Part shown: in pieces, positions 36,196 through 64,000 of the stretch
Numbering within the stretch: position 1 is the stretch's first letter
How the letters are laid out: every line of letters starts with the position of its first letter
NCBI GenBank assembly: GCA_045605265.1
Contig: JAZUPQ010000053.1
Span: 7,716-71,715, forward strand
DNA length: 64,000 nucleotides
From: Eubacteriales bacterium
Lineage (GTDB): Bacteria; Bacillota; Clostridia; Oscillospirales; CAG-272
Direction: 5' to 3'
Program-made: the position numbers and the translations under genes
The notes under the pieces: generated by a model
Seen by the model: the letters and a program-made list of their open reading frames with translations, nothing else
Told to the model about the DNA's origin: nothing
Database searches by the model: none

Positions 36196-37425
36196 ATGAA
36201 GACAAAGGTGAGAATTTTATCTTCTGTTTTGATGGTCGCGTTGATGTTGACGTTATCATCTTGTTTTCCCTCGGATTTGGGTATGAATAAGCCGTTTGGC
36301 GACGGAGATGAAAACAGCAACAGTGAAGATGATGCTTATATAAACGTTGAGGGCGGAGACAGTTACGAAATCACCATTTCAACCAATGAATCTACGAATA
36401 TTTTAGCCGCTTCAAAGGCTCTGCTTTCATCGGTAATTGTGAGATGCACATCGGGTGAGGGCTCCGGCGTAATATACGACATCGATAAAAATTCCGGAGA
36501 TGCATATATAATTACCAATTATCACGTTGTGTACGACTCTTCCACGAGCGATAAAATCAGCAAAAGTATTCAAATTTATCTTTACGGAAGTCCATACGGT
36601 CAGGTTTCCGAAAATCAGCTGGCGAAGTATGCAATCCCGGCGACCTATATTGGCGGAACAATGTACTACGACTTGGCAGTTTTGAAGATAGACGCGAGCA
36701 AAATTCTTATGGAATCCAGCGCAATCAAGGCAGATATTGCAGACTCCAACAAGGTATCGGTTCTTGAAACTGCGATTGCAATCGGCAACGCTAAGGGCGA
36801 AGGCATAAGCGCGACTCTCGGACACGTAAACGTAGACAGCGAAAATATCGTTATGCTGAGCGCCGACAACCAATCGAGAGTTACGTGCAGAGTTATGAGA
36901 ATCGATACGGCGGTAAACAGCGGAAATTCCGGCGGCGGTCTTTTTAATGACAGAGGTGAGCTGATTGGAATCGTAAACGCCAAAATGGCGGACACGACCG
37001 TAGATAATATCGGTTATGCTATCCCCTCTAACGTAGTAAAGGGAGTCGTAGATAACATCGTGTATTATTACAGAAACGGAAAAGCGGATAAATGCGTTTA
37101 CAGATGTATGCTCGGTATATCAGTAACGGTTAACGACGCAAAGGCTGTGTATAACACCGAAACGGGCAAAGTTAATATTTATGAGGAAATAGTTATCACA
37201 GAGGTTACGAGCGGCAGTCTTGTTAAAGATTATCTCAAAAAGGGTGATATAATCAACTCGATAACCATAGACGGAAATAAGCACGAGGTTGTCAGAACGC
37301 ATAACGTAATTGACTCTATGCTTAACGCCAGAGTAGGAAGCTCCGTAATTATGAACATAACAAGAGATGGACAAACCTTTGACGTTACAATTCCGATTAC
37401 AGAAGAGATGCTGACGGCATATTGA
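36196..37425 (+). CDS. trypsin-like serine protease (S1C/HtrA-like) lipoprotein
   Basis: The lipobox is 'LTLSSC'. The catalytic triad contexts are 'ITNYHVV' (His), 'DLAVLKI' (Asp) and 'GNSGGGLF' (Ser). The C-terminal domain looks PDZ-like. Confidence 0.8.
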   Translation: MKTKVRILSSVLMVALMLTLSSCFPSDLGMNKPFGDGDENSNSEDDAYINVEGGDSYEITISTNESTNILAASKALLSSVIVRCTSGEGSGVIYDIDKNSGDAYIITNYHVVYDSSTSDKISKSIQIYLYGSPYGQVSENQLAKYAIPATYIGGTMYYDLAVLKIDASKILMESSAIKADIADSNKVSVLETAIAIGNAKGEGISATLGHVNVDSENIVMLSADNQSRVTCRVMRIDTAVNSGNSGGGLFNDRGELIGIVNAKMADTTVDNIGYAIPSNVVKGVVDNIVYYYRNGKADKCVYRCMLGISVTVNDAKAVYNTETGKVNIYEEIVITEVTSGSLVKDYLKKGDIINSITIDGNKHEVVRTHNVIDSMLNARVGSSVIMNITRDGQTFDVTIPITEEMLTAY

Positions 37426-48656: not shown

Positions 48657-48862
48657 AATATCCTCCATAAAAGTCCTATGTTTTATACAATTATACAACA
48701 ACAGCCGAAGTATGTCAAGCATAAAAAAATCCTAAATATATAAAAAATTTTATTTTGTTAACAACTTATTTATATTTTTGTGCTATAATACTTAACTAGA
48801 TGTGTTTAAAATATTTTTTATACTTCAGGAAGGAACGAAAAAACAAAATTTCGAACAAAAAA

Positions 48863-49840
48863 ATGGTAAAAGCTCAAAATCTTGTAAAAAGATACGGAAA
48901 TAATTATGCTCTCAACGACGTCAGCTTTGAAATCGGCGACGGCGAGATAGTAGGACTTCTCGGTCCTAACGGAGCGGGAAAAAGTACCGCTATGAATATT
49001 CTTACGGGATATCTCTCTGCTACCTCGGGCAGTGCTGAAATCGACGGAGTGAATATGCTGGAAAATCCGATAGAAGCAAAGCGTAACATAGGATTTTTAC
49101 CCGAACAGCCACCGCTTTACCCCGAAATGACGGTAATCGAATATCTCAATTTCGTTTACGAGCTCAAAGGAGTGAGTGAGGACAGGGAAACTCACCTGAA
49201 CAACGTTTTGGAGTCTGTAAGACTTCTTGACGTCAAGGGCAGACTTATCAAAAACCTGTCAAAAGGCTATAAGCAGAGAGTAGGAATCGCGCAGGCGCTT
49301 GTCGGAAATCCTAAGGTTATTATTTTTGACGAGCCTACGGTAGGCCTTGACCCAAAGCAAATCATAGAAGTGAGAAATCTGATACGCTCTCTTGCAAAGG
49401 ATCATACAGTAATTCTCTCAACACATATTTTGGCAGAGGTACAAGCAGTATGCGAGAGGGTTATTATCATAAACAAGGGCAAAATAATAGCAGACGAAAA
49501 GACTGAAGATTTGACAAAAACAATTGAGGACGGCTACCATTACAAAATCAAGGTGTGCGGACCGCAAAAGGAAGTAATCGACGGACTTGAAGCTGTCAGA
49601 GGCGTCAAGAGCGTCACCGCCACAAACGAGAGAGATGCAGATTCCTACGCTTATCTCGTTGAGAGTGAGAGAGGTGTAGACGCCAGAAAACCTATATTCA
49701 ATCTCTGCGCTGAAAAGAAATGGGCGATACTTGGAATGATGCCCGTTGGCACAGACCTTGAATCAATATTTATCAGACTTGTTGACGGCTCGGAAAACGT
49801 TAACGCCTCAACACAGAAAAATCGCAGAAAAGCGCATTGA
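48863..49840 (+). CDS. ABC transporter ATP-binding protein (ABC-2/GldA-like)
   Basis: Walker A 'GPNGAGKST', signature 'LSKGYKQR' and Walker B 'IIFDEPTVGLD' are present. The start at 'MVKAQNLVKRYG' is typical for this family; the track start at 48800 adds a K-rich extension. Confidence 0.9.
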   Translation: MVKAQNLVKRYGNNYALNDVSFEIGDGEIVGLLGPNGAGKSTAMNILTGYLSATSGSAEIDGVNMLENPIEAKRNIGFLPEQPPLYPEMTVIEYLNFVYELKGVSEDRETHLNNVLESVRLLDVKGRLIKNLSKGYKQRVGIAQALVGNPKVIIFDEPTVGLDPKQIIEVRNLIRSLAKDHTVILSTHILAEVQAVCERVIIINKGKIIADEKTEDLTKTIEDGYHYKIKVCGPQKEVIDGLEAVRGVKSVTATNERDADSYAYLVESERGVDARKPIFNLCAEKKWAILGMMPVGTDLESIFIRLVDGSENVNASTQKNRRKAH

Positions 49841-49854
49841 TAGGGGGATAAAAA

Positions 49855-50562
49855 ATGTTTGCAGTATTTAAAAAGGAATTACGCACGTATTTCACGGGTG
49901 TTATGGGATATGTATTTCTCGTGCTTTATCTTGCCCTGGGCGGCGCGATTTTTGCGTTTACAACACTGTTTTCCATGTCATCTTCCGTAACGGAGTTTTA
50001 TACATATATGCTTTTGGCATCAGGTATAATTCTCCCGCTTCTTACAATGAAATCGTTCAGTGAAGAGAGAAAAATTAAAACCGAGCAGCTTCTTCTTACA
50101 GCGCCCGTATCTATAATTTCTCTCGTGGCAGGCAAGTTCTTGGCTGCTTATTCCATGTTTGCGTCTTGTATGATATTGAATTCGCTTTATTTTCTCGTTT
50201 TGAATATATACGCTCAACTTAAATTCGCGGTGCTTTTTGGAAATTTACTGGCAATTTTGCTTGTTGGTATGGTGTTTATTTCCATAGGTCTTTTTGTATC
50301 CTCGCTTACCGAAAATCAGCTTGCCGCGGCAATCGGCACAATCGGTATTATAATAGTATTTTTGCTTATCGGACTTTTGTCGGCGCTGTTTCCAACGGCG
50401 TACGCTATCCGTTATATTCTTAACTTCATTTCAATCTTCACACGTTTCCAAGGATTCGTTAACGGATACTTTGATTTTGCTTCGGTATTTTACTATCTGA
50501 CAGTGTCATTCATATTCTTGTACTTGACAGTGAGAGTTTTTGACCGTCGCAGATATAATTAA
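49855..50562 (+). CDS. ABC-2 type transporter permease (GldF-like)
   Basis: 235 aa with 6 hydrophobic helices. It begins 14 nt after the ATPase gene. Confidence 0.8.
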   Translation: MFAVFKKELRTYFTGVMGYVFLVLYLALGGAIFAFTTLFSMSSSVTEFYTYMLLASGIILPLLTMKSFSEERKIKTEQLLLTAPVSIISLVAGKFLAAYSMFASCMILNSLYFLVLNIYAQLKFAVLFGNLLAILLVGMVFISIGLFVSSLTENQLAAAIGTIGIIIVFLLIGLLSALFPTAYAIRYILNFISIFTRFQGFVNGYFDFASVFYYLTVSFIFLYLTVRVFDRRRYN

Positions 50563-50573
50563 AGGGGCTAAGA

Positions 50574-52088
50574 ATGGAAAAAAATAAGGAAATACGCAAG
50601 GCGCAAATAGCCCAAAAGGTTTTACCGGAAGGACTTTTTGCCGTGATAATTGCTATTGCGCTGGCGGTAAACGTAATACTTTATATAGTGACGGAAGCAT
50701 TCGGACTTTATCTGTATCAACCAACGGTTGATGACCTTACACTATCCGGAAATACCGACGTTATGTTCAAAGAAGCGTTGGATAACGAAAGTAAGGTTAA
50801 AATCATCTTCTGTCAGGATGAAAAGGATATGTCTGTTCACGATACGGGAAGTTTTGTTTACAGAACTGCGGTTGAATTCGAGAACAAATACCCTGAAATG
50901 ATAGAAATTGAATATGTCAATATTCTGACCAAAAGAAACCAAAATGGCGATATAGTCGACCTTTCGCAATATCGTAAAAATAAAGAAGAAATATTTTATT
51001 CATCGGTTATATTTGAGTGTGAGGGCAGATATAAGGTGCTGACCGACCTGCTTACCTCTGTCGGATATTCCGACTTTTTCACCCTCAACACAAGGGGACA
51101 GGCAACCGCTTACAATGGAGAAGAAATTATAGCGAGTATGATTTCTTGGGTATTGACCAAAGAACATAAAACTGCGTACGTGGTAGGCGGTCACAGCGAA
51201 AAATTAGACGCATCCTTTACAAATCTTCTCGTTTGCTCGGGATATGACGTAAAGCCTCTTGATTTGAAAAGGGAAAACGTTCCCGACGATGCCAATCTCG
51301 TGATTATTTCAAACCCTGCGTCGGATTTTGAAAAGGCGGCAGAAGGCTCAAACCTTTGGAGTGAAATCCTTTGGAGTGAAATCGACAGGCTTGAGGATTT
51401 TGTGAACAAAAGAAACGGCCACCTGATCGTGACACTCGACCCTTATGCAAAGAGACTGCCCGTTCTTGAAGCGTTTTTGAGTACATACGGTATATCCGTT
51501 TCATATACCCAAAGCGAAAAGGACGGATATATACACAATATTGTAAAGGATATGCAAAACGCGATTACAAGCGACGGCTTTACTCTTGTTACGAGCTACG
51601 CCGACGACCCCGTGGCTAATAAAATCGACGACATCGTATCCAAATATTCAACAGGCGACGTAATCATAAAATCCACGGGCGCATTGGATCTTTCCGGCGA
51701 GGCAAAACCGATTTTGCTGACCTCTTCCGCGTCTTCATTGGAAGCGGGCGGAAAAACCGTTGATACGGAGGGAAGATACTGCGTAGGCGCATACAGCAAA
51801 TCCGAAAACAGAGGAACTGTATTCGTGGTTCCGAGCGCGTATATAGCCGCATCGGACTCTCTTATAACCGAGGGATATTCGAACAAAGAAATGCTTTTCG
51901 CTTTAAGCGAAACGCTCTTCGGCGCGAAAAATCTGCCATACGGTTGTAAAATCGTAGGTTACGACACTCAAACTCTTGAAAATTTGACTATGGGCGCCGC
52001 TACCGTTTACACAGTTTTATTTATGAGTATTCCTTTTGCAATCGCAGTGGTCGGAACGGTCATAATTATACGCAGAAAAAATAGGTAA
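50574..52088 (+). CDS. GldG-like ABC-transporter auxiliary protein, paralog 1
   Basis: 504 aa with TM helices at both the N- and C-termini. The layout matches GldG/ABC_transp_aux: 'DDLTLSGNT..VKIIFC', 'AYVVGGHSEKLD' and 'DDANLVIISNPASDF..GHLIVTLDP'. Confidence 0.7.
   Translation: MEKNKEIRKAQIAQKVLPEGLFAVIIAIALAVNVILYIVTEAFGLYLYQPTVDDLTLSGNTDVMFKEALDNESKVKIIFCQDEKDMSVHDTGSFVYRTAVEFENKYPEMIEIEYVNILTKRNQNGDIVDLSQYRKNKEEIFYSSVIFECEGRYKVLTDLLTSVGYSDFFTLNTRGQATAYNGEEIIASMISWVLTKEHKTAYVVGGHSEKLDASFTNLLVCSGYDVKPLDLKRENVPDDANLVIISNPASDFEKAAEGSNLWSEILWSEIDRLEDFVNKRNGHLIVTLDPYAKRLPVLEAFLSTYGISVSYTQSEKDGYIHNIVKDMQNAITSDGFTLVTSYADDPVANKIDDIVSKYSTGDVIIKSTGALDLSGEAKPILLTSSASSLEAGGKTVDTEGRYCVGAYSKSENRGTVFVVPSAYIAASDSLITEGYSNKEMLFALSETLFGAKNLPYGCKIVGYDTQTLENLTMGAATVYTVLFMSIPFAIAVVGTVIIIRRKNR
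51353..51382 (+). repeat. perfect 2 x 15-bp in-frame tandem duplication inside the GldG-like gene
   Basis: CCTTTGGAGTGAAAT repeated twice gives the protein sequence 'LWSEI LWSEI'. Confidence 0.9.
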
Positions 52089-52106
52089 GGAGAGAGACGG
52101 GACTAA

Positions 52107-53840
52107 ATGAAAAATATTTTTAGTAAGACGAACAAAAAAAGAAATAAAATAATGTCCGCTTTGACCGTTGCGCTTATCGTTTTGACGGTAGTCTTAAATC
52201 TGCTTTTTACTTATTATGGACAGAAGCACACGATATTCGCAGATGAAACCCCGGAGGGACTTTATACTCCTACGGATAAATTTATAGAGGAATGTAAATT
52301 TCTTAATGATGTCAAGGATGAAAACGGAGAAAAGGCCACTGTTAAGATCATTTTCTGTAACGACCGCGACTACATCGAAGAGAATATGGTTAGCAGAGTG
52401 ACGTATTTTGTTGCCAAGAGATTGGCCTCGGTTTATGACAATCTTGAAATCGAAAACGTAAATGTAATTCTTAATCCTACGGCGGTCGCAAAGTACAAAA
52501 CGACCTCACTTTCCGAAATACTTCCAAGCGATATTATCGTTGCTTACGGAGACAGATACAGGATAATGGGCGCAAGTAAGATGTGGGTTACGGGCAGTGA
52601 CAAAACACTGTTTTCATATAATGGCGAATACAGGCTTTTGGGACTTCTCAAATCCGTAACCGCGTTGGGTATGCCAAACGCGTACTTCGTTATCAACAAC
52701 GGTGAGACTCACTACGACCCCGACCGCAAGGAGACGGGTTATATAGACGCTGACGGCAATTTCGTTAAGGTTACGGATGAGAAATATCTCCTTGACGGAT
52801 TTGCAAATCTTCTCGCTGCTCGCGGATTGACGATTAAGCTGCTTGATTTGAGCAAGGCAGACAGAATTCCGGATGATTGCGCGCTTTTGATTATAAATAA
52901 TCCAAAGAGAGATTTCACTTACGACGAGGACAGGCTTGACGAATTTTACTATGTAAGCGACACGGAAAAATTAGACCGCTACCTTGTTGAAAAACAAGGT
53001 GCGATTATGGTAAATAAGGACTATAAAACCACCTTACCCGTATTTGAGGATTTTCTTCACGAATGGGGATTTGATTTCTCAAACGCTATCGTAAAAGATG
53101 AGGTAGACAGCATCAAGGATGAGCAAAATACCAACACCCAGCTGATATCTAAATACAATAGCGACGAAACGAGCTACGGATACGCAATATACGGTGATTT
53201 TGCCGCCTTGGGCAGCGCTCCGATAACGGTGTTTACCAATGCGGGAGCGATAAAATGCGCCTTTCCTACGTCTGCCTCCCAGCAGGAGCAGGGTACGCCA
53301 AACGCTTCAAAAAACTTTGTTTCGTTCCTGACGTCTTCCGCAAATGCTCAGCTTTACAGCAAAAACGATTTGAGCAACGATTATACTGCGCCTATGGATG
53401 ACACGGGCTCTTATAATCTCGCAGCCCTCTCGATAAGAAACGAGATTGACACGGAAAAGGACGAGAAAACCTACTCTTATTTCTTCTGCACGGCAAGCGA
53501 CGAGTTTTTCTCGAATTTGCTATTGAACAACCCTGTGTATGCAAATTATGACGTTCTTTCCTCGCTTATAGATAACATTTCAAGAATTGATATGTTTGGC
53601 TCGATGGAAATCGGCGGAACATCGTTTAACTCCTCCTCTTTCGGCGGAAAGCAGCTGGTATCTTCCGCGATGAATGAAGTGGATAAGAATATCTTTTCAC
53701 CCGACGGTAAAGAAATTGTCAGAGTAACCAAGGGAATAAATACCGCGGATAAGGTTATTCTTACGGTAATCATATTCGCCGTACCGACGGCAATCGCAGT
53801 CTTAGGCGTGGTTGTAAGAATAAAGAGAAAATTCTTGTAA
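52107..53840 (+). CDS. GldG-like ABC-transporter auxiliary protein, paralog 2
   Basis: 577 aa with TM helices at both termini. It has the same motif order as paralog 1: 'ATVKIIFCND', 'AYFVINNGETHYD' and 'DDCALLIINNPKRDF..GAIMVNKD'. Confidence 0.65.
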   Translation: MKNIFSKTNKKRNKIMSALTVALIVLTVVLNLLFTYYGQKHTIFADETPEGLYTPTDKFIEECKFLNDVKDENGEKATVKIIFCNDRDYIEENMVSRVTYFVAKRLASVYDNLEIENVNVILNPTAVAKYKTTSLSEILPSDIIVAYGDRYRIMGASKMWVTGSDKTLFSYNGEYRLLGLLKSVTALGMPNAYFVINNGETHYDPDRKETGYIDADGNFVKVTDEKYLLDGFANLLAARGLTIKLLDLSKADRIPDDCALLIINNPKRDFTYDEDRLDEFYYVSDTEKLDRYLVEKQGAIMVNKDYKTTLPVFEDFLHEWGFDFSNAIVKDEVDSIKDEQNTNTQLISKYNSDETSYGYAIYGDFAALGSAPITVFTNAGAIKCAFPTSASQQEQGTPNASKNFVSFLTSSANAQLYSKNDLSNDYTAPMDDTGSYNLAALSIRNEIDTEKDEKTYSYFFCTASDEFFSNLLLNNPVYANYDVLSSLIDNISRIDMFGSMEIGGTSFNSSSFGGKQLVSSAMNEVDKNIFSPDGKEIVRVTKGINTADKVILTVIIFAVPTAIAVLGVVVRIKRKFL

Positions 53841-53850
53841 GGAGACGCGA

Positions 53851-56772
53851 ATGAAATATATAAAGAAAAAGGTTAATCAATTTCACCTTGCAATAATTTT
53901 GAGCTGTATCTTTGCTCTTTTGGTCGGAACCGGTGTCGTTTTGGGTCTTACTTTGTTTAAAGATGAACCCAATACTCCCGCACAGAAGCCTGAGGTTTTA
54001 GAAGGAGAGAGCGTTCACTACAATTCAACCGTTGCATATCCGGTAATCGAAGAAACGGATATGCAGAGCATAACTGTTGAGAACACGGTTAAGGGCGAGG
54101 GAAACAACCCCGACCAAAAAAATTATTTTAAATTTGAACGTCCAAAACCCGGCGAAGCTATGTCTATTTATTATTCGTTAAATCACGGCGATGCCGATGA
54201 AAAAATTGAGTATATAGAATATCTTCCGGAAATATTTGATAAAGAAAATATTGATTATTCAAGCCTTTACGCCATAGAGTTAAATGACGGATATAAAGGA
54301 ATTTATAAATTGTCTTATTTGAGCAACGCCCTCGAAGTTGCATATTTTAGAGAGAGAATAGTGCTCTCAAATGACGCGGAAAAGAGAGAAAAGGAGCTTC
54401 ATGCCTACGGACTTGCAGAGGGTGAATATGCAAAAGTAACATTCGAGTATCTTGAATACAAAGATGAGAACGACAAGGTCGGAACTCTGAAAACTCACAC
54501 CATAAAAATCGGTGAGCAAAACATAAGCGGCAACGGCTACTACTTTATGGTAGACGACAGGAACTACGTATATACTTCAACGAGCAACCACTACGATTAC
54601 GCTCTTGCGGGCTTTGAGAGCTTTGTTAAATCAAACCTCGTCATCGAAGGGCTTGAAATCGATAACGGCTACGGTCCGTTCCTCACCACCAACTTCACAC
54701 AATGGGTGAACCAAATGCACGAAAATATCGGTGACAAGGTGGTTGACGGATCGAAGGTTATCGTATATAGCGACGTTATCACTCCTATAAATCTTCCGGA
54801 TGAAAGCTACGGTGCAACGGGCGTGATAGGAGACGGATATCTTCCGTCCGAATACAGTCAAATTGAGTTGGACCTTTCCGAAATGACGGGAGACTCCTAC
54901 GAAAGGCTTCACCGTATGCTCGTTGGCAAGAAAATAGGCTCTTACGAGCAAGCGCCGTTACTTATTACACTACCAACGAGAACAGGCGTGTTCAATATAG
55001 TTGAGTTTGACAAAAACGGCAAAGCGGACTACGTTTATGAGATTTGCAAAATCGAGTCAATTTTGACAAATGACGGCGAATTATGCGACACGGGTAGGGT
55101 AGTAGGTGAAAATAACCTTATAAAAGTGACCTATAACCTCAAAATCAACGGTAAAAAGATTGGCAGCAAATATCACGGCGTAATAGATATCAGCGAGGAT
55201 TTTGTAAATAGCGCTGAAAGCCAAATCAGAGCGAGCGCCATCGGCGAGCTGACGACTCCTATTTCCATTGAAGTTAATTACAGTAAAAACAACTCGGTAA
55301 ATATCCAAGGTAAAAAGGTTATGACCGAGATTGTATCCATTCTCTCTCCCGACGGCAAGGATCCGTTGAGAAGAGTTACCAAAAACTGTGTTGTGGCGTA
55401 TAAGTACAAAGTAATTGTAGACGGCGTCGTAACAGAAGAAAATAAGGTAGGCAATATTGACTTTTCAAAGGTTGACTTTACCGATGACAGCAAGAATCTT
55501 TCCGAAAAAGCCCTGTTTGCTATGATTGAAGGAAAAACAAGAGGAAAATTTAAAGACGATAAAATGGTTTTCGAAACCCAAACTTATTATTTCCAATTCG
55601 TCTACGAATTTCTTGCTTACAGCATCAAAAGTATAGACTACTTTGTTACCAAAGAAATGGTTGTTTCATTCCGTTTCCAAAACTATTCCGAGAGGGATCC
55701 GTATTACGGCGGTTCTTTGTACGAAAATTTGATTGATGACGAGAGAAAGCTATACGGACTCAACGCCTCCGCTTGCGAAAATATAGTTCAAATGCTCGGC
55801 GGAGTATCGGGAGATTCGGAGTCAAATACTGCCAACGGACTCGCCGGCACAGAGACGGTCGCCGTGGGAATAACTCCGGAAATTATGTATGATAAGGGCC
55901 TTTACGCACATACAATTTACTTTGAATTGCCCAGACTTATAACTATCAAAGACGGCTCTACGGATGAAAATCAGGTTGATGACTACGATTATTACGGCAA
56001 AATCGGTTTCAATCTTTATATAAGTCCCGAACAACCCGATAATACGAGATTTATAGCCTCCGACCTTTATGACGTGGTTGCAAAGATTGACGGAGAAAAC
56101 TTCAAGTTTTTGGACTACGAATTCACGGATTTCTGGGCTCGCCGCGATATGTTTATGATGAATATCAAGGTGATTGACGAGGTTGATGTAAAACTGGATA
56201 TGTCCGATGTTTACGGGCTTTATAGTTTTGAAATCAGACACAATGTCGAAAACAATTTTGACAAAGTGGAAGTCAAGGTCACCCCCGATCCGAGCGTTGA
56301 ATGCAGTGACAGCGAGCTTTTGGATTATATGAATGGCAAGAATGCAACTCAGGTAGATTTGGGTAATTTCTACAACTCAATTTATGAGGGAGATCCTATC
56401 GCGGACGACTTTAAGCCTGACACAATCGGCGCAGGTCTCTTCAAAGAGTGGATCAGAATGATATACTATACCGGTTATACAGGCGCTCTTAGCGAATCGG
56501 AGAAGCAAGAACTTGAAGTAAGCACCTCAAAGGCTCTCCTCACACTCTCTTTTAAGGCTAGCTCAAACGCAAACAAATACGTCTATGAGTTTTACAGAAT
56601 AAGCGACCGTAAGATAGCTGTAAAGCTATATCAGTTAAGTCCAAGCAACGTGAAAACGGACACGGTATCGGACTTTTATATTTCAACGTTTGCCTTCCAA
56701 AAGATTGTAAGAAATTTCCTCGGAATTTTAAACGGAGAAATCATTAACACCGACACGGGATACGAAGATTAA
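53851..56772 (+). CDS. large membrane-anchored extracytoplasmic protein in the slot after GldG (DUF4340-like position)
   Basis: 973 aa with a single N-terminal TM helix, 'HLAIILSCIFALLVGTGVVLGLTLF'. The rest is hydrophilic and rich in Tyr, Asp, Glu and Asn. It begins 10 nt after the preceding gene and has a GGAG RBS. The family assignment is by position only. Confidence 0.5.
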   Translation: MKYIKKKVNQFHLAIILSCIFALLVGTGVVLGLTLFKDEPNTPAQKPEVLEGESVHYNSTVAYPVIEETDMQSITVENTVKGEGNNPDQKNYFKFERPKPGEAMSIYYSLNHGDADEKIEYIEYLPEIFDKENIDYSSLYAIELNDGYKGIYKLSYLSNALEVAYFRERIVLSNDAEKREKELHAYGLAEGEYAKVTFEYLEYKDENDKVGTLKTHTIKIGEQNISGNGYYFMVDDRNYVYTSTSNHYDYALAGFESFVKSNLVIEGLEIDNGYGPFLTTNFTQWVNQMHENIGDKVVDGSKVIVYSDVITPINLPDESYGATGVIGDGYLPSEYSQIELDLSEMTGDSYERLHRMLVGKKIGSYEQAPLLITLPTRTGVFNIVEFDKNGKADYVYEICKIESILTNDGELCDTGRVVGENNLIKVTYNLKINGKKIGSKYHGVIDISEDFVNSAESQIRASAIGELTTPISIEVNYSKNNSVNIQGKKVMTEIVSILSPDGKDPLRRVTKNCVVAYKYKVIVDGVVTEENKVGNIDFSKVDFTDDSKNLSEKALFAMIEGKTRGKFKDDKMVFETQTYYFQFVYEFLAYSIKSIDYFVTKEMVVSFRFQNYSERDPYYGGSLYENLIDDERKLYGLNASACENIVQMLGGVSGDSESNTANGLAGTETVAVGITPEIMYDKGLYAHTIYFELPRLITIKDGSTDENQVDDYDYYGKIGFNLYISPEQPDNTRFIASDLYDVVAKIDGENFKFLDYEFTDFWARRDMFMMNIKVIDEVDVKLDMSDVYGLYSFEIRHNVENNFDKVEVKVTPDPSVECSDSELLDYMNGKNATQVDLGNFYNSIYEGDPIADDFKPDTIGAGLFKEWIRMIYYTGYTGALSESEKQELEVSTSKALLTLSFKASSNANKYVYEFYRISDRKIAVKLYQLSPSNVKTDTVSDFYISTFAFQKIVRNFLGILNGEIINTDTGYED

Positions 56773-56834
56773 ACTTGATTTTTTTGTATTTTAGCAGAGA
56801 AAAATATATTTTTTGAAAAAAATGGAAAAAACAT

Positions 56835-56863
56835 TTGCATTTTACAAAATAATATGTTATAAT
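56835..56863 (+). promoter_or_regulatory. sigma-A promoter of the 664-aa lipoprotein gene
   Basis: TTGCAT (56835-56840), a 17-bp spacer, then TGtTATAAT (-10 at 56858-56863). Confidence 0.65.
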
Positions 56864-56939: not shown

Positions 56940-58934
56940 ATGAAAAAAATCATCTCTATGATTATGGTGGCGGTAATGCTTATCCTCTCGCTTGTGAGCT
57001 GCGCATACAGCATTGCGGACGAGGATATATCGGCGTATGCTACCATATCCGCAGAAAACAAAAAGCTTCTGGAAGCTGCATTGAAGGATTTGGCTATTGA
57101 GGACGGAGACTTCACAGCAGATGCAGAGATTAGAAACCAGAAGGTTGAGGACGCTCTTTACGCTTCGATTGCAAACAGCGTAGCCTCCGAGGAAAAAAAG
57201 ACAGAGGGTAAGGCGAGCGGACATGACCTCGTGTTCTATTCCTACTATTGTACTGCAAAGATTGACGAAAAAGACGTTGTGCTTTTTGCTTCAAATATGA
57301 AGTCGGGCTCAGAGGGAAAGTTCCAGCTCGGTATTTTGGACTCGACCAAAACTCTTGAAATCGAACTTGGCAAGCTTTTCTCTGATTTTGATTTCAAAAA
57401 CAATTCTTACAAAACCGAGAGCCCTACCGCAACAACGCTTAAAGAGGGCGACGTTGTATTTGTAAGCTACAAGTATAAGGAAAAGGTCAAGAACGACGAA
57501 GGTAAGGAAGTTGAAAAGGACGTTACGATTACAAACGAGATGATCGTAGTCGAAAAGGTGTCCGATGACGGAGTCGAGAATCTTGCTCAATACCTTAACG
57601 GTCAAGAGGGCAACAAAGTTGATACACCCAAAAACGGCGTTCAGGGCGTAGACTATACCAATATCAAGGTCGACTGGATTGCTACGGGCAAAGAGCTTGG
57701 CACCGTTAAAGACGTTACCTTTGACGAAGAAAAGAAGGTAAAGGATATCAGAGGCGCTGAATATAACCTTGAAGACGTTGAGCTTACCTACCACGTATAT
57801 CCCGTAGGATACATTGGAGTTGAGGACTACAACGGCAGAAACGTAATTGACGTAATTCTCGGCGCGCAAATCACACCCAACATCTTCTATGAAATTTTGT
57901 TCGGCGAGAAGTTCTTTGACAAGAGCGAGACCGAAAGAAATAAGATTCTTGATAAGTATACAACAAGAGATGCGGACGGCAAGAAGATGAAGCTCGGTAC
58001 TCTTATCGAGTCAATCGCTGCCGCTCATAACGATCTTGACAGCAAGGAAAAGACTCTTAAAACAGCAAAAGAAACTCTTGAAAAGAGCAAAGAGACACTC
58101 GAAACTGCTCAAAAGAATTACGATGAAGCAGCCGAGAGCGATAAGAATACCAAGCTTGAAGCTCTTAACAAGGCAAAAGAAAGCGTAAAAAAGGCAGAAG
58201 ACGCAGTTTCTACAGCGGAAAACAATCTCAAACAGTCCGAGAGAGATAAGGATGAAAAAATCAGATTGCTCTTGACTCTTGAAAACGGCAAAATGGAAAA
58301 TAAGGTTGCGGAAAGCTACAAGGAAAACGTGAGAAGCAATCTCATTGATTCGTATAACAACGAAATCAAGATGAACCTTGCAAACGAGATTTACTTCTTC
58401 TTTGAAAAATACGTTGACGTTAAGTCGTATCCCGAAAAGGCTATTGACACAACCTACGACCAGCTTATCCAAAACTATAAGTACGATTTCTACAAGGGCG
58501 ATTTCGACAGCAGTACCTCCAACTACAAGAAGTACGAGGGCAACTTCAAGAATTTCCTTATGGTAGAGGTTAAAGAGCTTAACGGCGGCAAGGATGTAAC
58601 CAATTACGATACTGCTCTTGCTCTTATCCGCAAGGATGCGGAAAACTACGTTAAGCCGGTTCTTGTGATGTATGCGATTGCAGAGGCGTTTAATTTAACC
58701 GTTACCGAAAAAGAATACGATAAGTATATGGATTCAGACAATTACGATGCTAACGTATATCAATACGGTGAAAACGCAGTTCGCTATGCTTATCAGTTTG
58801 ACAAGATAATGAACTACTTCCTTCAAGACGGCGTAACGGCCGCTGTAAACGGTGAAGGAAAGGTTAATTATAACGGTCACATTACGTATAAATTCGCTAC
58901 TCCCGCATCCGAAGAAGCAGAGGACGAAGAATAA
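56940..58934 (+). CDS. lipoprotein with trigger-factor-like architecture and a K/E-rich coiled coil
   Basis: 664 aa with a lipobox 'LSLVSC'. A segment '[13 protein letters not shown]' sits where the trigger-factor PPIase begins. A long coiled coil follows ('[31 protein letters not shown]..'). C-terminal segments ('[16 protein letters not shown]', '[27 protein letters not shown]') resemble the trigger-factor C-domain. Confidence 0.5.
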
Positions 58935-58999
58935 TTGATTTATATAGGGTGAAGTCTTCTGCTTCGCCCTATACTAATATTATAATGAAAGGGATTCTT

Positions 59000-59437
59000 A
59001 TGAAGAAGGTTGAATTGTATACCGACGGCGCTTGCCGTGGCAATCCCGGTAAGGGTGGCTGGGGAGCGATATTGGTATACGGTAAATACGAAAAAGAACT
59101 TTCAGGCGGAGAGAGAGAGACAACCAACAACCGTATGGAGTTGATTGCCGCAATCGAGGGCCTTTCCGCTCTAAAAGAGCCTTGCGAGGTTACACTTTAT
59201 TCGGATTCCAAATATCTGGTGGATGCATATTTGCAGGATTGGGTAAGCGCTTGGCGCGAAAAAGGCTGGAAAAGAGGTAAGGATGAGCTTAAAAATCCGG
59301 ACCTTTGGGAAAAGCTCTACGCATTGACAGAGACTCACAAGGTGAGCTTCGTGTGGGTGAAGGGGCATAACGGTCACGACTATAACGAGAGATGCGACAA
59401 GCTTGCGACCGAGTTTGCGGATTCGTTTGCAGATTAG
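59000..59437 (+). CDS. rnhA: ribonuclease HI
   Basis: '[22 protein letters not shown]', 'TNNRMEL', 'YSDSKY' and '[17 protein letters not shown]' carry the RNase H DEDD residues. The ATG at 59000 matches RNase HI N-termini; the track start at 58949 adds 17 residues. Confidence 0.9.
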
Positions 59438-59452
59438 AATTTAGGAGTTAAT

Positions 59453-60988
59453 ATGGGTAAAAAAGAAGTATCAAGCGTCCGCAGAAATGCCGCGCAAGAA
59501 CAAGAATTTAAAAAAATAGATAGAAAAATCGCCATTGTTGCGCTGGTTATCGCCGTTTCAATCATCGCTTTGATTGGGCTTGGCGTTCTTATAAATTATC
59601 TTGCTAACCGCGGATTTGACTATATGAGCGAAGACCTGTCTGAATATATAAAGCTCCCTGAGGAAATATATAAAGGCTTCAAAACCGATTTGAAATTTGA
59701 TGAGGTAGGAGACGCGGAAGTTGACAGACTAATCAACAAGCTTATCTGTCAAAACAAGGAAAAAGAGCCCGAAAACGAAGGCGCGAGCGTTATGAGAGAG
59801 GCGGTAGAGGTAGGAAGCGTAGTTGAAATTTTTTATAGAGGCTACACCTTTGATAAGGACGGAAACGAAATAGAGATTGAGAATTCATCTAACCTTTTTG
59901 GAACACCCTATAAGCTTGAAGTGGGATCGGGTGTGTTTATTCCGGGCTTTGAGAACGCATTGATTGGCAAAATTCCGGATGAATATCCAAGACAGCTGTA
60001 TCAGACTTTTAACGGCGTAGTTGAGGAAGGCCAGGTTGTTTATATATCGTACAGGGCGTTGTATCCCGACGGAAAAACAGGCACCTCTTATTCCGAGAGA
60101 ATAGATTTGAAATCCGGCGATATCGATGCAAAATACGGCGTAGGCTTTAAAGAATTTATCATAGGAAAAGAAATAGGCGAAAAGCTCGGAGAAAAAATCT
60201 TCAAGCTCGCGAAAGGGGACGTTGTGTACTACGATATGACCGTAGAATACGTTACCGAGCGCGATCCGAATACTCTTTCAATTGAGGCGAGATTCCCCTT
60301 GACTTACTCGGAAGAGGATTTGAGGGGTAAGACCGTAAAATTCGACGTTTATTTCCAAAGCCACGTAAAATACGAGACGGATACCTATGACGAAGACTTT
60401 ATAAAAAATGTCTTAAAACTCACAGAAAAGGACCTGGAATCTTACACGGGTGCTACCTTGATTGAAAAACATAGGTCAAAACTTCTTTCAGAGGCGAAGG
60501 CGGCCGATGAGAAAAACAGAAGCCAGATTTACGAAAACGATATCTGGGAGTATCTTCATTCCAAGGTTGAAATCATCAAATTCCCACAGAGTGAGGTCAA
60601 CGAATTCTATGAATCCGAATATAATCGGATTAAACAGCAATATAATATGAACCCGTCGGGCTACTCTTCGGTTGAGGAATTTGCCAGAGTGTATTACAGG
60701 CTTGGCCCGACAGAAAATCTCAAAGTTCATATGACGGCGATAGCCCAGAAGACCGTAGCCGAGAAAATGATGTTCTATCACATTTTGAGAAGCGAAAGAA
60801 TCATTCCAAGGGGCGATGAATTCGACAGACTCTATGAGGAAACGATTAAGGAGCAGCTTGAATATCACCAAACGGACGACAGAGAGGAATTGCTCGATTA
60901 TTACGGCGAGGATTACTTTGTTGAGACGACCTATTACAGAGTATTTTTAGAAAATATGATCAAGTGGACGAAAGAAAATTTAAAATAA
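59453..60988 (+). CDS. membrane-anchored trigger-factor-like protein with an FKBP-type PPIase-like domain
   Basis: 511 aa with an N-terminal TM helix, 'IAIVALVIAVSIIALIGLGVLI'. The segment 'GSVVEIFYRGYTFDKDGNEI...LEVGSGVFIPGFENALIGK' matches the trigger-factor/FKBP PPIase signature. The C-terminal region resembles the trigger-factor C-domain. There is no ribosome-binding N-domain. Confidence 0.65.
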   Translation: MGKKEVSSVRRNAAQEQEFKKIDRKIAIVALVIAVSIIALIGLGVLINYLANRGFDYMSEDLSEYIKLPEEIYKGFKTDLKFDEVGDAEVDRLINKLICQNKEKEPENEGASVMREAVEVGSVVEIFYRGYTFDKDGNEIEIENSSNLFGTPYKLEVGSGVFIPGFENALIGKIPDEYPRQLYQTFNGVVEEGQVVYISYRALYPDGKTGTSYSERIDLKSGDIDAKYGVGFKEFIIGKEIGEKLGEKIFKLAKGDVVYYDMTVEYVTERDPNTLSIEARFPLTYSEEDLRGKTVKFDVYFQSHVKYETDTYDEDFIKNVLKLTEKDLESYTGATLIEKHRSKLLSEAKAADEKNRSQIYENDIWEYLHSKVEIIKFPQSEVNEFYESEYNRIKQQYNMNPSGYSSVEEFARVYYRLGPTENLKVHMTAIAQKTVAEKMMFYHILRSERIIPRGDEFDRLYEETIKEQLEYHQTDDREELLDYYGEDYFVETTYYRVFLENMIKWTKENLK

Positions 60989-60996
60989 TAAAAATC

Positions 60997-61030
60997 AAAA
61001 CGCTGTACCAAATTTGGTACAGCGTTTTCT
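60997..61030 (+). terminator. intrinsic terminator after the TF-like gene
   Basis: 9-bp stem CGCTGTACC/GGTACAGCG followed by TTTT. Confidence 0.85.
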
Positions 61031-61094: not shown

Positions 61095-61406
61095 ATGAAA
61101 AATCAAATCAATACAGAATTTTATTCCAACAGAAACGGTGAAATTTTTGCATTCGTGAGTGAAAATTTCGGCAAGAGGAAATACAGAATAATCTCAAACA
61201 TTGAGACCTTCAAATATAGCGAAGATATGCTTATTTGCGAAGCGGAGAGCGGATTTGAGAGCTTTCCTTACTTCGATATATGGGATTACAACGGAGTTGA
61301 CTTTTCGGTTGTTGCAGAGGATATAATTTTTGAAAAAGACCTTGAATACGTTGGCTCTGTGGATCAGCTTGTGAGCTTCATAAACCCGACGAAAAAAGCG
61401 AGCTAA
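61095..61406 (+). CDS. hypothetical small acidic protein
   Basis: 103 aa with an RBS GGAGA. No signal peptide or recognisable motif is present. Confidence 0.45.
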   Translation: MKNQINTEFYSNRNGEIFAFVSENFGKRKYRIISNIETFKYSEDMLICEAESGFESFPYFDIWDYNGVDFSVVAEDIIFEKDLEYVGSVDQLVSFINPTKKAS

Positions 61407-61417
61407 ACTCGCTTTTT
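61392..61417. terminator. bidirectional terminator between convergent genes
   Basis: Stem GCGAG/CTCGC with A-run and T-run flanks. It overlaps the end of the 61095 CDS. Confidence 0.6.
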
Positions 61418-61423
61418 ATTGTT

Positions 61424-61990
61424 TTACGGAGCGTCAGGTCTTAATTCTCGACCTACGAGCGGGATTTGCGTAGCAAGCTTTTTAAATTTTTTGAGAATTT
61501 TCTTCTTTCTGAACCTTTTGCAGTCAATCACTAAAATCCCCGCGTTGAAAAAATCGTAACCGTTGGTACCAACGGCATTTTCGCGACACGCCCCCGCAAA
61601 ATTCTCTCCAATATCTGCAAAAAAGAGCTCGCTTATATCTCCTGCCACGGCTGTATCGCCGTCAATATAAATCGCTCTGTCCAAACTTTTCCAAGCATCT
61701 GCAATAAGAAAGCGAAAGCAGGCGGTTTTGGAATTATAATCTTTGATTGGAATAGATTTTGAGATATCAGAGAGATATTCGCTGATGTCGTTGAACTCGA
61801 TATCGAAGCTTTCGCTTTCCATAGCAAGAAGCGTGTCGACGTATTCGCCGTTGGATTCGGAGCAGAGAATGTGAACGCGATATTTGTAGTCTTTATTTGA
61901 GTTTTTTATAATGGAACGCAAAGACTCAACCGTGCATTTCATGGAAGCGTCCTCGCAGGCGAAAAATATATCAACCGTGTCCTTTTTCAT
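61424..61990 (-). CDS. glycosyltransferase family 8 protein, apparently C-terminally truncated
   Basis: 188 aa carrying the GT8 N-terminal half: 'IFFACEDASMKC', 'VHILCSE', the DxD motif 'IYIDGDTAV' and 'FNAGILVIDCKRFRKKKI'. The sequence stops where full-length GT8 enzymes continue for about another 100 aa. Confidence 0.55.
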   Translation of the reverse strand: MKKDTVDIFFACEDASMKCTVESLRSIIKNSNKDYKYRVHILCSESNGEYVDTLLAMESESFDIEFNDISEYLSDISKSIPIKDYNSKTACFRFLIADAWKSLDRAIYIDGDTAVAGDISELFFADIGENFAGACRENAVGTNGYDFFNAGILVIDCKRFRKKKILKKFKKLATQIPLVGRELRPDAP

Positions 61991-62398: not shown

Positions 62399-62449
62399 TT
62401 TAATACGATAGGATACACACAAATATATTTTAAATTAAGGAGAAAAAAC

Positions 62450-64000
62450 ATGAAAAAGAAACTGATTTGTCTGTTTTTGACGGTTGCTATGTTGCTTTCT
62501 TGTATGTTTGTTTTTGCTTCTTGTGATTTTGGCGGCGGAGGAAACGACGACGACCAAAATAACAACGATGACGACGACAAAAACAACAATAACGACGACA
62601 ATAACGACGACAATAACGACGACGATGACGGCAATCTCGATTTCGGCGGCGGCGACGGCGACGGCGACGGAGAAGAGAGCGGCTACGGCGATTGGGATAC
62701 AACAACCCTTTTGTTCCAGCTTACTCACAACACTAACTCCGAAGAGCTTCCTGCCGGTTGTGAGAGATACATGGCCGGATCGGACGAGTTCGACGATACC
62801 ATCGACGATATGGTTATGGAGCGTAACAATGCCGCATACTATGAAGCTAACGTAGAAGTTAACTATCAATACTATGATACTTCTGCTACATACTCCATGG
62901 CGGGCACCTCTCTTGCGGACGATATCTTTAGAAAGACTCACTCCGATACGGTAAGAGGCAACCCGGATATGTACGTTAACTTCCAGGCTACAATGGTAAG
63001 CTGCGCGCTTAACGGATGCTTTGCTAATATCGCTTCCGAGACAAAGGGAACTAACTACTTCAAGTTCAACGACGAAGACTATAATCCCGACTACACTCTT
63101 GAAGATGAGGAAGATATCAAGGACTATGGTTTTATGTACGACTATATGAGAAACTGCACACTTTCCAAGGATAAGATGTACATTCTCGCGTCTGACTATA
63201 TGACAGACCTTGTAAGAGCGTTCTACGTAGTACCTGTTAACGTTCAGCTTCTCAACATGGTTGGAAACGATGTTACAGGCGATAAGAACAATGACGGTGA
63301 GTTTACAATCGATGACCTTTACCAAGAGGTATGGGACAAGAATTGGGACTATGACCTTATGGCTGCTTACGCAGACGAAATTTACGAGCCGAGCCCTCTT
63401 TCCGGCGGCGGTCAGACAATTCACGACAGAGTGGGTTGGGCGCTTAATGCCGGCGGTCTTGTAGCTTCCGGTCTTGTATTTACAACACCTATCACTATCA
63501 TTAACAGAGATCTTAATGCAGCAGGCGACGATTACGAATATAGCTATCCGGAAGAGTGCCAAGGCCTTTATGACCTCGCTGATTCTCTTGCAAAGCTTGT
63601 TAAGAAGGAGGGTATCATCGTAGTTGGCGGCCAACAGGGCGCTCAACACCAGGCTGACTATCAGACTTACCACACATCCGCATTCCACGCAATTCGCGAG
63701 AGATTCTGCGATAATGGAGTTCTCTTTGGCGGCGTTATCCTTCTCGGCGCTCTTGAATTCGATCAGTACCAAGACCTTAAAGACGGCGGCGGATTCGGTG
63801 TAGTTCCTGTTCCTTTCTACAAGAAGGCTACTGCAAACGATAAGTATCTTACAAGTATCCACAACGTTGGACGCTGCGGCGCTATCGCTATCAATACACA
63901 GAACTTCTCACAATGCACAGCATTCCTTGATTATCAATCACAGAACTCAACAGAAATTCTTAACGAGTATTACGACTACCAGCTTCAATACAAGGTTGCA
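62450..64000 (+). CDS. lipoprotein, probable extracellular solute-binding protein (3' end beyond the window)
   Basis: I translated this by hand from the ATG at 62450 (RBS AAGGAG at 62437-62442). It gives 517 codons with no stop up to base 64000. The N-terminus is 'MKKKLICLFLTVAMLLSCMFVFASC' (lipobox), followed by an Asp/Asn/Gly linker and then a globular region ('..TIDDMVMERNNAAYYEANVEVNY..'). That region resembles large Clostridial ABC substrate-binding lipoproteins. The gene is absent from the ORF track because it has no stop in the window. Confidence 0.75.
   Translation, partial: MKKKLICLFLTVAMLLSCMFVFASCDFGGGGNDDDQNNNDDDDKNNNNDDNNDDNNDDDDGNLDFGGGDGDGDGEESGYGDWDTTTLLFQLTHNTNSEELPAGCERYMAGSDEFDDTIDDMVMERNNAAYYEANVEVNYQYYDTSATYSMAGTSLADDIFRKTHSDTVRGNPDMYVNFQATMVSCALNGCFANIASETKGTNYFKFNDEDYNPDYTLEDEEDIKDYGFMYDYMRNCTLSKDKMYILASDYMTDLVRAFYVVPVNVQLLNMVGNDVTGDKNNDGEFTIDDLYQEVWDKNWDYDLMAAYADEIYEPSPLSGGGQTIHDRVGWALNAGGLVASGLVFTTPITIINRDLNAAGDDYEYSYPEECQGLYDLADSLAKLVKKEGIIVVGGQQGAQHQADYQTYHTSAFHAIRERFCDNGVLFGGVILLGALEFDQYQDLKDGGGFGVVPVPFYKKATANDKYLTSIHNVGRCGAIAINTQNFSQCTAFLDYQSQNSTEILNEYYDYQLQYKVA
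62588..62623 (+). repeat. 3 x 12-bp tandem repeat (AATAACGACGAC) within the Asp/Asn linker
   Basis: There are three perfect copies encoding NNDD. A further (GGCGAC)x3 lies at 62651-62668. Confidence 0.85.

Follow-up and report, generated by a model that had tools for sequence, protein, structure and literature searches.

Trigger factor (TF) is the textbook cytosolic, ribosome-bound chaperone, with a C-domain that acts as an ATP-independent holdase and an FKBP head that serves as a prolyl isomerase and an auxiliary binding site. Additional TF homologues without the ribosome-binding domain are also known, an example being the dedicated TF-like chaperones of the PceT/RdhT type in dehalorespiring Firmicutes. 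The known extracytoplasmic peptidyl-prolyl isomerase (PPIase) chaperones PrsA, PpiD, and SurA are parvulin based and have, to our knowledge, no detectable sequence link to TF. Here, we describe two genes flanking rnhA in a 64,000-nucleotide stretch of an Eubacteriales bacterium genome (the window; GenBank assembly GCA_045605265.1, contig JAZUPQ010000053.1, positions 7,716 to 71,715, forward strand), which encode a lipoprotein of 664 amino acids (aa; lipoTF) and a transmembrane (TM)-anchored protein of 511 aa (tmTF). On balance, the pair are probably chaperones of TF descent, anchored on the outside of the cytoplasmic membrane.

Additional TF homologues were reported from 390 of 15,241 TF-containing genomes, 209 of the 390 being Clostridia (Wan et al. 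2024, mBio, PMC11559001), and in 367 of the 390, all TF copies but one lacked the ribosome-binding motif. That study reads the extra copies as dosage constraint plus subfunctionalisation, and its main text mentions no TM segment, signal peptide, or lipoprotein. Sli-FKBP of Streptomyces lividans is a Tat-dependent FKBP-type PPIase lipoprotein that aids the folding of secreted proteins (PMC6833217). No literature description of an exported or membrane-anchored TF was found, in a search that covered subscription journals incompletely, so that absence is not proof.

The open reading frame (ORF) list places lipoTF at 56940-58934, rnhA at 58949-59437, and tmTF at 59453-60988, all on the + strand, as given in an earlier reading made by a model from the sequence alone (the sequence-only reading). 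That reading took the two flanking proteins for exported and anchored TF derivatives; its observation was confirmed with one motif re-assigned, and its interpretation is supported as far as sequence analysis goes.

Trigger factor homology of the TM-anchored protein

Pfam FKBP_C matched tmTF over residues 117-173 (25.6 bits against a gathering score of 21.1), which bears out the earlier assignment of a TF-type FKBP segment at GSVVEIFYRGY. NCBIfam tig (TIGR00115) aligned residues 275-505 with model positions 202-408 (E 1.3e-17), in agreement with the proposed TF C-domain-like C-terminus; the score of 63.8 bits lies far under the equivalog cutoff of 180.2. A family profile was built from 26 homologues, of which 20 matched Pfam Trigger_C and 16 matched FKBP_C; none of the 26 matched Trigger_N, SurA_N, or Rotamase. 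Searched against PDB sequences, this profile found trigger factors at an E value of 5e-11. Its hhalign comparison with Escherichia coli TF (E 2.5e-12, probability 97.7%) set residues 72-509 against TF residues 119-418, which comprise the linker, the PPIase domain, and the whole C-domain. The similarity was specific for TF, the same profile giving E 0.12 with E. coli PpiD and 0.51 with SurA, and these E values exclude chance resemblance.

The AlphaFold2 model of tmTF (predicted local distance difference test [pLDDT] score, 86.8; predicted template modelling score, 0.73) gave the same picture. In a Foldseek search of the PDB, the eight best matches were all TF, led by 1W26 (E 1.4e-9 over 447 columns) and followed by 2VRH, 1T11, chloroplast TIG1, and the Thermotoga maritima TF; tandem-FKBP (FK1-FK2) proteins and SlyD came after them. 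PrsA, SurA, and PpiD were absent from the top 50 PDB matches of either protein. The similarity check that had been proposed, by profile and by fold, thus came out significant for tmTF and specific with respect to PpiD and SurA, and it did not refute the claim of TF descent.

The PPIase pocket is kept throughout the family: TF F168 corresponds to Y128 (26/26 members), G197 to G165 (26/26), F198 to F166 (24/26), F217 to F281 (25/26), Y221 to Y285 (25/26), and F233 to F297 (26/26). Residues this close to invariant point to selection on the PPIase site.

The ribosome-binding N-domain (TF 1-118, with Trigger_N and the GFRxGxxP motif) is absent, the alignment starting at TF residue 119, and its position is taken by a K/R-rich, disordered tail followed by a single TM helix and a juxtamembrane motif that is conserved. 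The statement that tmTF carries an N-terminal TM anchor instead of the ribosome-binding domain therefore holds, with one hydrophobic segment (residues 21-53) in the whole protein and no Trigger_N. By profile and predicted fold, tmTF is a true homologue of TF that lacks ribosome docking. It falls outside the Tig equivalog, as it has no N-domain, scores under the cutoff, and is predicted not to be cytosolic.

From its N terminus, tmTF was divided as follows (all + strand). The K/R-rich, predicted cytoplasmic tail (residues 1-22; 59453..59518) has 8 K/R in the first 25 residues and pLDDT values below 50. The single TM helix (residues 23-52; 59519..59608) has a Kyte-Doolittle maximum of 3.07 and is a helix over the same residues in the AlphaFold2 model. 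The juxtamembrane motif and TF-type linker (residues 54-111; 59612..59785) correspond to E. coli TF 119 onward from residue 72; the motif is common to the lipoprotein family (E 1.9e-5), and Y65 and Y73 are conserved in the tmTF family. The outer FKBP N-half (residues 112-175; 59786..59977), with GSGVFIPGFENALIGK, carries the FKBP_C match and pocket residues. It is followed by a nested beta-rich domain (residues 176-272; 59978..60268), a gap in the alignment with E. coli TF, and by the outer FKBP C-half (residues 273-306; 60269..60370), with IEARFPLTYSEEDLRGKTVKFDVYF, which was delimited by profile alignments and holds F281, Y285, and F297. The remainder (residues 307-511; 60371..60985) is a Trigger_C-type helical chaperone domain, identified by NCBIfam tig (model positions 202-408), Trigger_C, Foldseek, and hhalign.

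The nested insert, about 95 aa long, separates the helix GFENALIGK of the FKBP domain from the strand LSIEARFP and is carried by 146 of 147 family representatives. Compared with the outer FKBP domain by hhalign, it gave E 5.9e-4 over 75 collinear columns, and the outer FKBP N-half of tmTF matched the nested domain of the lipoprotein at E 9.9e-5. Pfam FKBP_C gave weak matches in 2 of 10 isolated inserts (E 0.03 and 0.085), and the FK1-FK2 proteins among the Foldseek matches of tmTF point the same way. On this weak to moderate support, the insert is probably, though not established to be, a degenerate FKBP duplicate.

One lipobox relative (P0025; L044:2814-4121, 435 aa) has no nested insert and lies in another context, with neither rnhA nor a lipoprotein paralogue; it may represent the pre-insertion state.

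The lipoprotein paralogue

The signal peptide of lipoTF (56940..57002, + strand) consists of MKK, a hydrophobic region, and the lipobox LVSC (residues 18-21), which had been noticed earlier. In the 34 homologues from which the family profile was built, L18 and C21 are invariant (34/34). With its K/R n-region, hydrophobic h-region, and a lipobox of the form [LVI][ASTVI][GAS]C within about 35 residues of the start, the protein has the features of bacterial lipoproteins that are Lgt/LspA substrates, and lipidation is predicted. The mature part comprises a degenerate FKBP-like head that includes the nested beta domain (residues 85-292; 57192..57815, + strand; hhalign), an antiparallel helical hairpin, rich in K, E, and A, inside the C-domain (residues 352-446; 57993..58277, + strand; AlphaFold2), and a Trigger_C-like helical chaperone module (residues 452-628; 58293..58823, + strand; hhalign).

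Taken alone, lipoTF had no significant Pfam or PDB sequence match, and NCBIfam tig did not match it. Aligned by hhalign, the lipoTF and tmTF family profiles were collinear over 394 columns (99.7% probability, E 7.5e-27), and the sole large gap was the coiled coil. By region, the nested domains matched at E 2.1e-16 and the C-domains, with the hairpin removed, at E 1.8e-14 over 181 columns, in line with the similar C-terminal helices that had been noted in both proteins; the outer FKBP halves gave E 1.5e-4 (N-half) and 0.012 (C-half). Mismatched-region controls gave E 0.74 and 0.034. The lipoTF hidden Markov model (HMM) matched 63 of 147 TM-family representatives with up to 58.7 bits, and the TM-family HMM matched the lipoTF ORF at E 1.9e-11. 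On these profile comparisons, lipoTF is a diverged paralogue of tmTF, and the nested domain common to both places the duplication later than the nested insertion. Its tie to TF runs mostly via the tmTF family, so that the claim of TF descent stood by profile and fold for tmTF and, for lipoTF, mostly through its paralogue, direct support being weak. Pfam Trigger_C matched 2 of the 34 lipoTF family members (best E 7.5e-5), and Trigger_N, Rotamase, and SurA_N matched none of them.

The lipoTF segment that had been named as the counterpart of GSVVEIFYRGY (residues 167-179) had to be re-assigned, as it aligns instead to the nested insert of tmTF at VEEGQVVYISYRA (residues 190-202); the true counterpart, in the FKBP N-half, is another 12-residue segment. 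The PPIase motif is degenerate: TF G197 is replaced by D, G, or K, F198 by L, V, or F, and Y221 by N, T, or Y, I195 is deleted, and the G-F motif is lost.

In the AlphaFold2 model of lipoTF (pLDDT, 87.7), helices 352-396 and 399-446 form the antiparallel hairpin, which is missing from the tmTF family and is about 65 Å long, as estimated from helix length. The K/E coiled-coil insert had been put at about 90 aa. This fits the hairpin itself (about 95 aa) but not the whole C-domain insertion, which measures about 128 aa (family median, 129 aa; range, 98-175 aa). Matches of lipoTF to RipA, V-ATPase subunit G, and keratin among PDB sequences were set aside as coiled-coil noise. Weak matches to TPK_catalytic, PRC, Exonuc_VII_L, RNase Y, and NodT were likewise treated as noise, far under threshold and mostly in the coiled coil, and a match of the hairpin to SEC10/PgrA (34 bits against a cutoff of 70) looks like coiled-coil composition.

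Membrane topology

The topology of the pair was judged from four independent lines of evidence. The lipobox Cys is invariant in the lipoTF family (34/34). In tmTF, 8 K/R (8-18 in most homologues) precede the TM helix and an acidic flank follows it, which indicates an N-in, C-out orientation. An N-terminal hydrophobic anchor was found in 142 of 147 TM-family representatives, 33 of the 142 having a lipobox in place of the TM helix; of the five without an anchor, three are clearly truncated at the N terminus and two have a lipobox-like Cys near the start. Seven TM-family relatives carry, between the lipobox and the TF body, a further domain of a kind typical of extracytoplasmic proteins, namely FMN_bind in four (E 2e-10 to 1e-7), Big_2 in two, and Flg_new in one. 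Together, these lines make a cytoplasmic orientation very unlikely and strongly suggest that the TF-like domains of both proteins lie outside the membrane. The topology check suggested in the sequence-only reading thus went in its favour, every indicator placing the domains outside.

The fused relatives are P0128, P0161, P0183, and P0218 (FMN_bind), P0177 and P0185 (Big_2), and P0122 (Flg_new); an FMN-binding domain fused to a chaperone is odd in itself. At L054:1-11201, the gene for the Big_2-fused lipoprotein P0177 directly follows those for three large Big_2 proteins with AhpC-TSA/Redoxin/Thioredoxin and FMN_bind domains; an M20 peptidase gene comes next. This locus has the look of a cluster for thiol-redox and flavin chemistry outside the cytoplasm that possesses a TF-like chaperone of its own.

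Gene order, divergence, and alternative explanations

A word-indexed search returned 26 tmTF-family and 46 lipoTF-family clusters. An exhaustive profile search of a metagenomic library found at least 384 representatives (50% identity clusters) with E values of 1e-30 or less, and the best 150 of the 384 were all full-length matches. Related loci were collected with the lipoTF family as seed and one genome per species. All 40 loci come from gut metagenome-assembled genomes (ruminants, deer, yak, and humans) of uncultured bacteria labelled Clostridia, Eubacteriales, Oscillospiraceae, or "Ruminococcus sp." The rnhA gene follows the lipoTF gene in every related locus with room for it, the tmTF gene comes next in 35 of 35, and the same order is found in the most distant homologues looked up (28% identity). 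More distant family members lie in other contexts, without rnhA or the lipoprotein.

A sigma-70-like promoter candidate (TTTGCA, 18 nucleotides, TG-TATAAT; 56834..56863, + strand) lies in the AT-rich gap of 167 nucleotides between the DUF4340 gene and the lipoTF gene. It has 10 of 12 consensus matches plus an extended -10 TG and agrees, as a pattern match only, with the promoter proposed earlier for the first gene. The tmTF start codon lies 15 nucleotides past the rnhA stop codon, with AGGAG in front, and a hairpin with a perfect 14-bp stem directly 3' of the tmTF stop codon (60997..61028, no strand assigned) is a likely terminator, possibly bidirectional. With these signals, which are pattern evidence only, the three genes look like one transcription unit.

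The middle gene matched Pfam RNase_H (E 5.9e-45) and passed the NCBIfam NF001236 equivalog cutoff (210.3 bits against 160) and, judged by these models, is an ordinary, bona fide RNase HI. As listed, it has 162 aa from GTG 58949; the NF001236 alignment begins at residue 18, so that the true start is probably ATG 59000, 51 nucleotides downstream of the listed one. A functional coupling of rnhA with the TF-like pair was considered and rejected, as this is a cytosolic RNase HI without a hydrophobic segment and its place seems to reflect gene order kept by descent. It nevertheless lies between two envelope-protein genes in every related genome, for no apparent functional reason.

Upstream of the triad lies a cluster (48800..56772, + strand) encoding an ABC ATPase, an ABC-2 permease, two GldG-like bitopic proteins of 504 and 577 aa, and a DUF4340 protein of 973 aa. 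The pair could be dedicated assembly or accessory factors of this envelope machine and not general foldases, an explanation that we consider unlikely. In 29 of the 34 loci that extend far enough upstream, as in the window, the block immediately precedes the triad, and three shorter loci show the DUF4340 gene. The stretch between the DUF4340 and lipoTF genes showed no terminator, all extracytoplasmic proteins of the block evolve similarly fast, and the locus has seen two parallel duplications, the GldG-like proteins also being paralogous (E 2e-17). On the other side, seven of the 40 loci, each from its own species (L025, L027-L030, L033, and L036), keep the triad with trpS abutting the lipoTF gene and, in the 10 kb retrieved, show no homologue of the ABC, GldG, or DUF4340 genes; the pair in the window has a separate promoter-like site behind the 167-nucleotide gap; and distant family members occur in unrelated contexts. 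The link to the GldG cluster that had been suspected from adjacency is thus not obligatory.

The seven loci also hold the most diverged lipoproteins (25-27% identity), which points to a clade-level insertion or deletion of the 8-kb block. The two GldG-like proteins (504 aa, 50574-52088; 577 aa, 52107-53840) are paralogues over their full length (BLASTP E 2e-17, 24% identity), so that two paralogous pairs of envelope proteins are encoded at the locus. Both GldG-like proteins carry TM segments at either end; the 504-aa protein had no Pfam match, and the 577-aa protein, with a score of 33.0, came just under the ABC_transp_aux gathering score of 34.7.

Measured against the window proteins, median identity was 83% for trpS, 77% for rnhA, and 71% for the ABC ATPase, and 30% for lipoTF, 31% for tmTF, and 34% for the DUF4340 protein. 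The values of the neighbours indicate a fairly shallow clade, in which conserved gene order is weak evidence of functional coupling. The very fast divergence of the pair (25-43% identity, against 67-93% in housekeeping neighbours) might also be expected if the TF scaffold had been co-opted for a nonchaperone surface role, such as a spacer, an adhesin-like protein, or a wall-spanning stalk, with vestigial PPIase and holdase functions. The fusions of relatives to surface-type Big_2 and Flg_new domains, the degenerate PPIase motif of lipoTF, and weak matches of its hairpin to the SEC10/PgrA surface-exclusion model and to the OprM and AcrA hairpins could be read in the same way. The tmTF pocket (Y128, G165, F166, F281, Y285, and F297), however, is invariant or nearly so, both proteins keep the complete TF C-domain, and the matches of the hairpin are of a sort that coiled-coil composition typically gives and stay below every family threshold; a surface role of this kind seems distinctly improbable. 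By far the least probable explanation is that the domains face the cytoplasm, as a membrane-tethered TF for nascent membrane proteins on the cis side of the translocon: TF does act on nascent chains and interact with the secretion pathway (general knowledge; cited within PMC11559001), but 8-18 K/R before the TM helix with an acidic flank after it (positive-inside rule), the replacement of the helix by a lipobox in 33 of 147 representatives and in every member of the paralogous family, and the family fusions to FMN_bind, Big_2, and Flg_new all oppose it.

Proposed function of the pair

The preferred explanation remains a pair of TF-derived chaperones tethered outside the cytoplasmic membrane. 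The analysis shows the homology, the arrangement of domains, the signals for anchoring, and a gene order that is conserved. By analogy with PpiD and PrsA, which do this with a parvulin domain and a TM or lipid anchor, the most likely function would be to fold or hold translocated proteins without ATP. That the pair are active as chaperones and PPIases, that the paralogues co-operate, and which clients they serve is what we infer from here on.

An ancestral TF would have lost its N-domain exactly at the boundary with the linker and gained an export and anchor signal; the FKBP head would then have acquired the nested second beta domain, after which the gene was presumably duplicated. Loss of ribosome docking, together with a signal anchor, would bring the TF module to the trans side of the membrane, which offers no ATP. 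At this site, tmTF, keeping the aromatic PPIase and peptide-binding pocket and the ATP-independent holdase C-domain, could act as a catalytically competent foldase that binds unfolded chains leaving the Sec translocon and isomerises prolyl bonds. Its partner lipoTF would be a PPIase-dead holdase or adaptor, and its hairpin may enlarge the surface for binding or let the module reach further. The strict co-occurrence of the paralogues in the clade suggests that they are non-redundant and possibly act jointly.

Several points weigh against this reading. The lipoTF profile gave E 0.3 with E. coli TF by hhalign, and none of the comparisons of the lipoTF family with E. coli TF, PpiD, or SurA was significant, whether the hairpin was included or removed (E 0.2-0.6); the best TF among the Foldseek matches of lipoTF, that of T. 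maritima, ranked third (probability 0.92, E 0.043). The topology call rests on rules and family comparisons. The conserved gene order may be mere inheritance in a fairly shallow clade, and the fast evolution of both TF-like proteins fits surface exposure but also relaxed constraint. Finally, the TM segment of tmTF has no conserved residues in the 26-homologue alignment, and nothing therefore points to specific docking at the translocon; with the free swap for a lipobox, the helix would be a plain tether and not a docking element.

A more far-reaching version, possible but doubtful, would have the PPIase-competent tmTF and the hairpin-bearing lipoTF form a heteromeric, ATP-independent cradle that receives chains from SecYEG or YidC on the trans side of the membrane and is coupled in some lineages to extracytoplasmic thiol-redox/flavin modules. 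The TF principle of a cradle placed where a polypeptide exits would thereby have shifted from the ribosomal tunnel to the far side of the membrane. With its retained sequence-level TF homology, the family would then be a living intermediate from cytosolic TF toward SurA-, PpiD-, or PrsA-like exported chaperones.

If the tethered-chaperone explanation is true, the ATP-independent scaffold of TF has been put to new use outside the cell, as an exported TF that would surprise specialists, and the reading of the N-domain-less TF duplicates concentrated in Clostridia would change. The pair would be candidate secretion foldases for abundant uncultured gut Oscillospiraceae-like bacteria, and the family would offer an evolutionary bridge between TF and SurA/PrsA-type modules.

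Other features of the window

The window is origin-proximal core chromosome of a spore-former. Positions 1-44000 include genes for ApbE (1422-2450, - strand), alaS, SpoVAD, dnaA (7833-9236)-dnaN-recF-gyrB-gyrA, RNase J, parB/parA, lysS, a CtpA-like S41 peptidase, an HtrA-like protease (36196-37425), ileS, and trpS, and cumulative GC skew climbs from about 10 kb onward. The presence of ApbE indicates that the organism would be able to flavinylate proteins outside the membrane. Neither a canonical tig nor a prsA gene was found within the 64-kb window.

On the 3' side of the terminator hairpin lies an ORF of 103 aa (61095-61406) with its own terminator-like hairpin (61393-61417) and no family match (best, Imm17; E 0.32). 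It is followed by a Glyco_transf_8 ORF (61424-61990, - strand; 188 aa, model positions 2-182 of 253), which may be truncated or frameshifted. Long overlapping ORFs on both strands at 62435-63862 cover an ACG/ACA-rich tandem repeat (62543-62635; periods 12, 21, and 24) and translate to T/I-rich or V/I-rich low-complexity runs.

Comparison with known systems

With Tig (TIGR00115/COG0544), tmTF shares homology from the linker through FKBP to the end of the C-domain (TF 119-418) and the pocket aromatics; it differs by having a tail and TM helix or a lipobox in place of the N-domain, by its predicted extracytoplasmic location, and by the nested domain of about 95 aa. An FKBP domain with an inserted beta domain is also found in SlyD/SlpA, and SlyD appeared among the Foldseek matches of tmTF (probability, 0.90-0.99). 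SlyD, however, is cytosolic, and the tmTF insert lies one element earlier, upstream of the FKBP flap that receives the IF domain in SlyD.

The best functional analogy for tmTF is E. coli PpiD, likewise N-in, with an N-terminal TM anchor and an extracytoplasmic helical chaperone module plus a PPIase-type domain; PpiD differs in its parvulin-type domain and SurA-like module and has no detectable similarity to tmTF (hhalign E 0.12). For lipoTF, the best functional analogy is PrsA, a lipobox-anchored extracellular foldase/holdase of monoderm bacteria (Bacillota). PrsA has a parvulin domain and is much smaller than lipoTF; no sequence similarity was detected between the two, and both the coiled-coil hairpin and the FKBP-derived head are missing from PrsA. 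The pair thus shows the two kinds of tether known from these chaperones, a lipobox as in PrsA and an N-terminal TM helix as in PpiD, and no parvulin domain: Rotamase and SurA_N were found in none of 60 members, and hhalign against E. coli PpiD and SurA gave E 0.12-0.6. By these profile comparisons, tmTF is not a parvulin chaperone.

The N-domain-less TF duplicates of Clostridia and other genomes (PMC11559001) likewise have no ribosome-binding domain, and the copies described here differ from them in carrying export and anchor signals. Sli-FKBP is, as predicted for lipoTF, an extracytoplasmic lipoprotein of a monoderm, there with an FKBP-type PPIase; it belongs to a different phylum, is exported by Tat, and has no reported TF-type module (the word "trigger" is absent from PMC6833217). 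Its existence also qualifies the statement in the sequence-only reading that PrsA-type parvulins are the known extracytoplasmic foldases, as an FKBP-type lipoprotein is known in Streptomyces (PMC6833217). PrsA and Sli-FKBP can be regarded as precedents for membrane-tethered extracytoplasmic PPIase-chaperones. The kind is thus already known, and what would be new here is that such proteins are built from TF and FKBP domains and not from parvulin.

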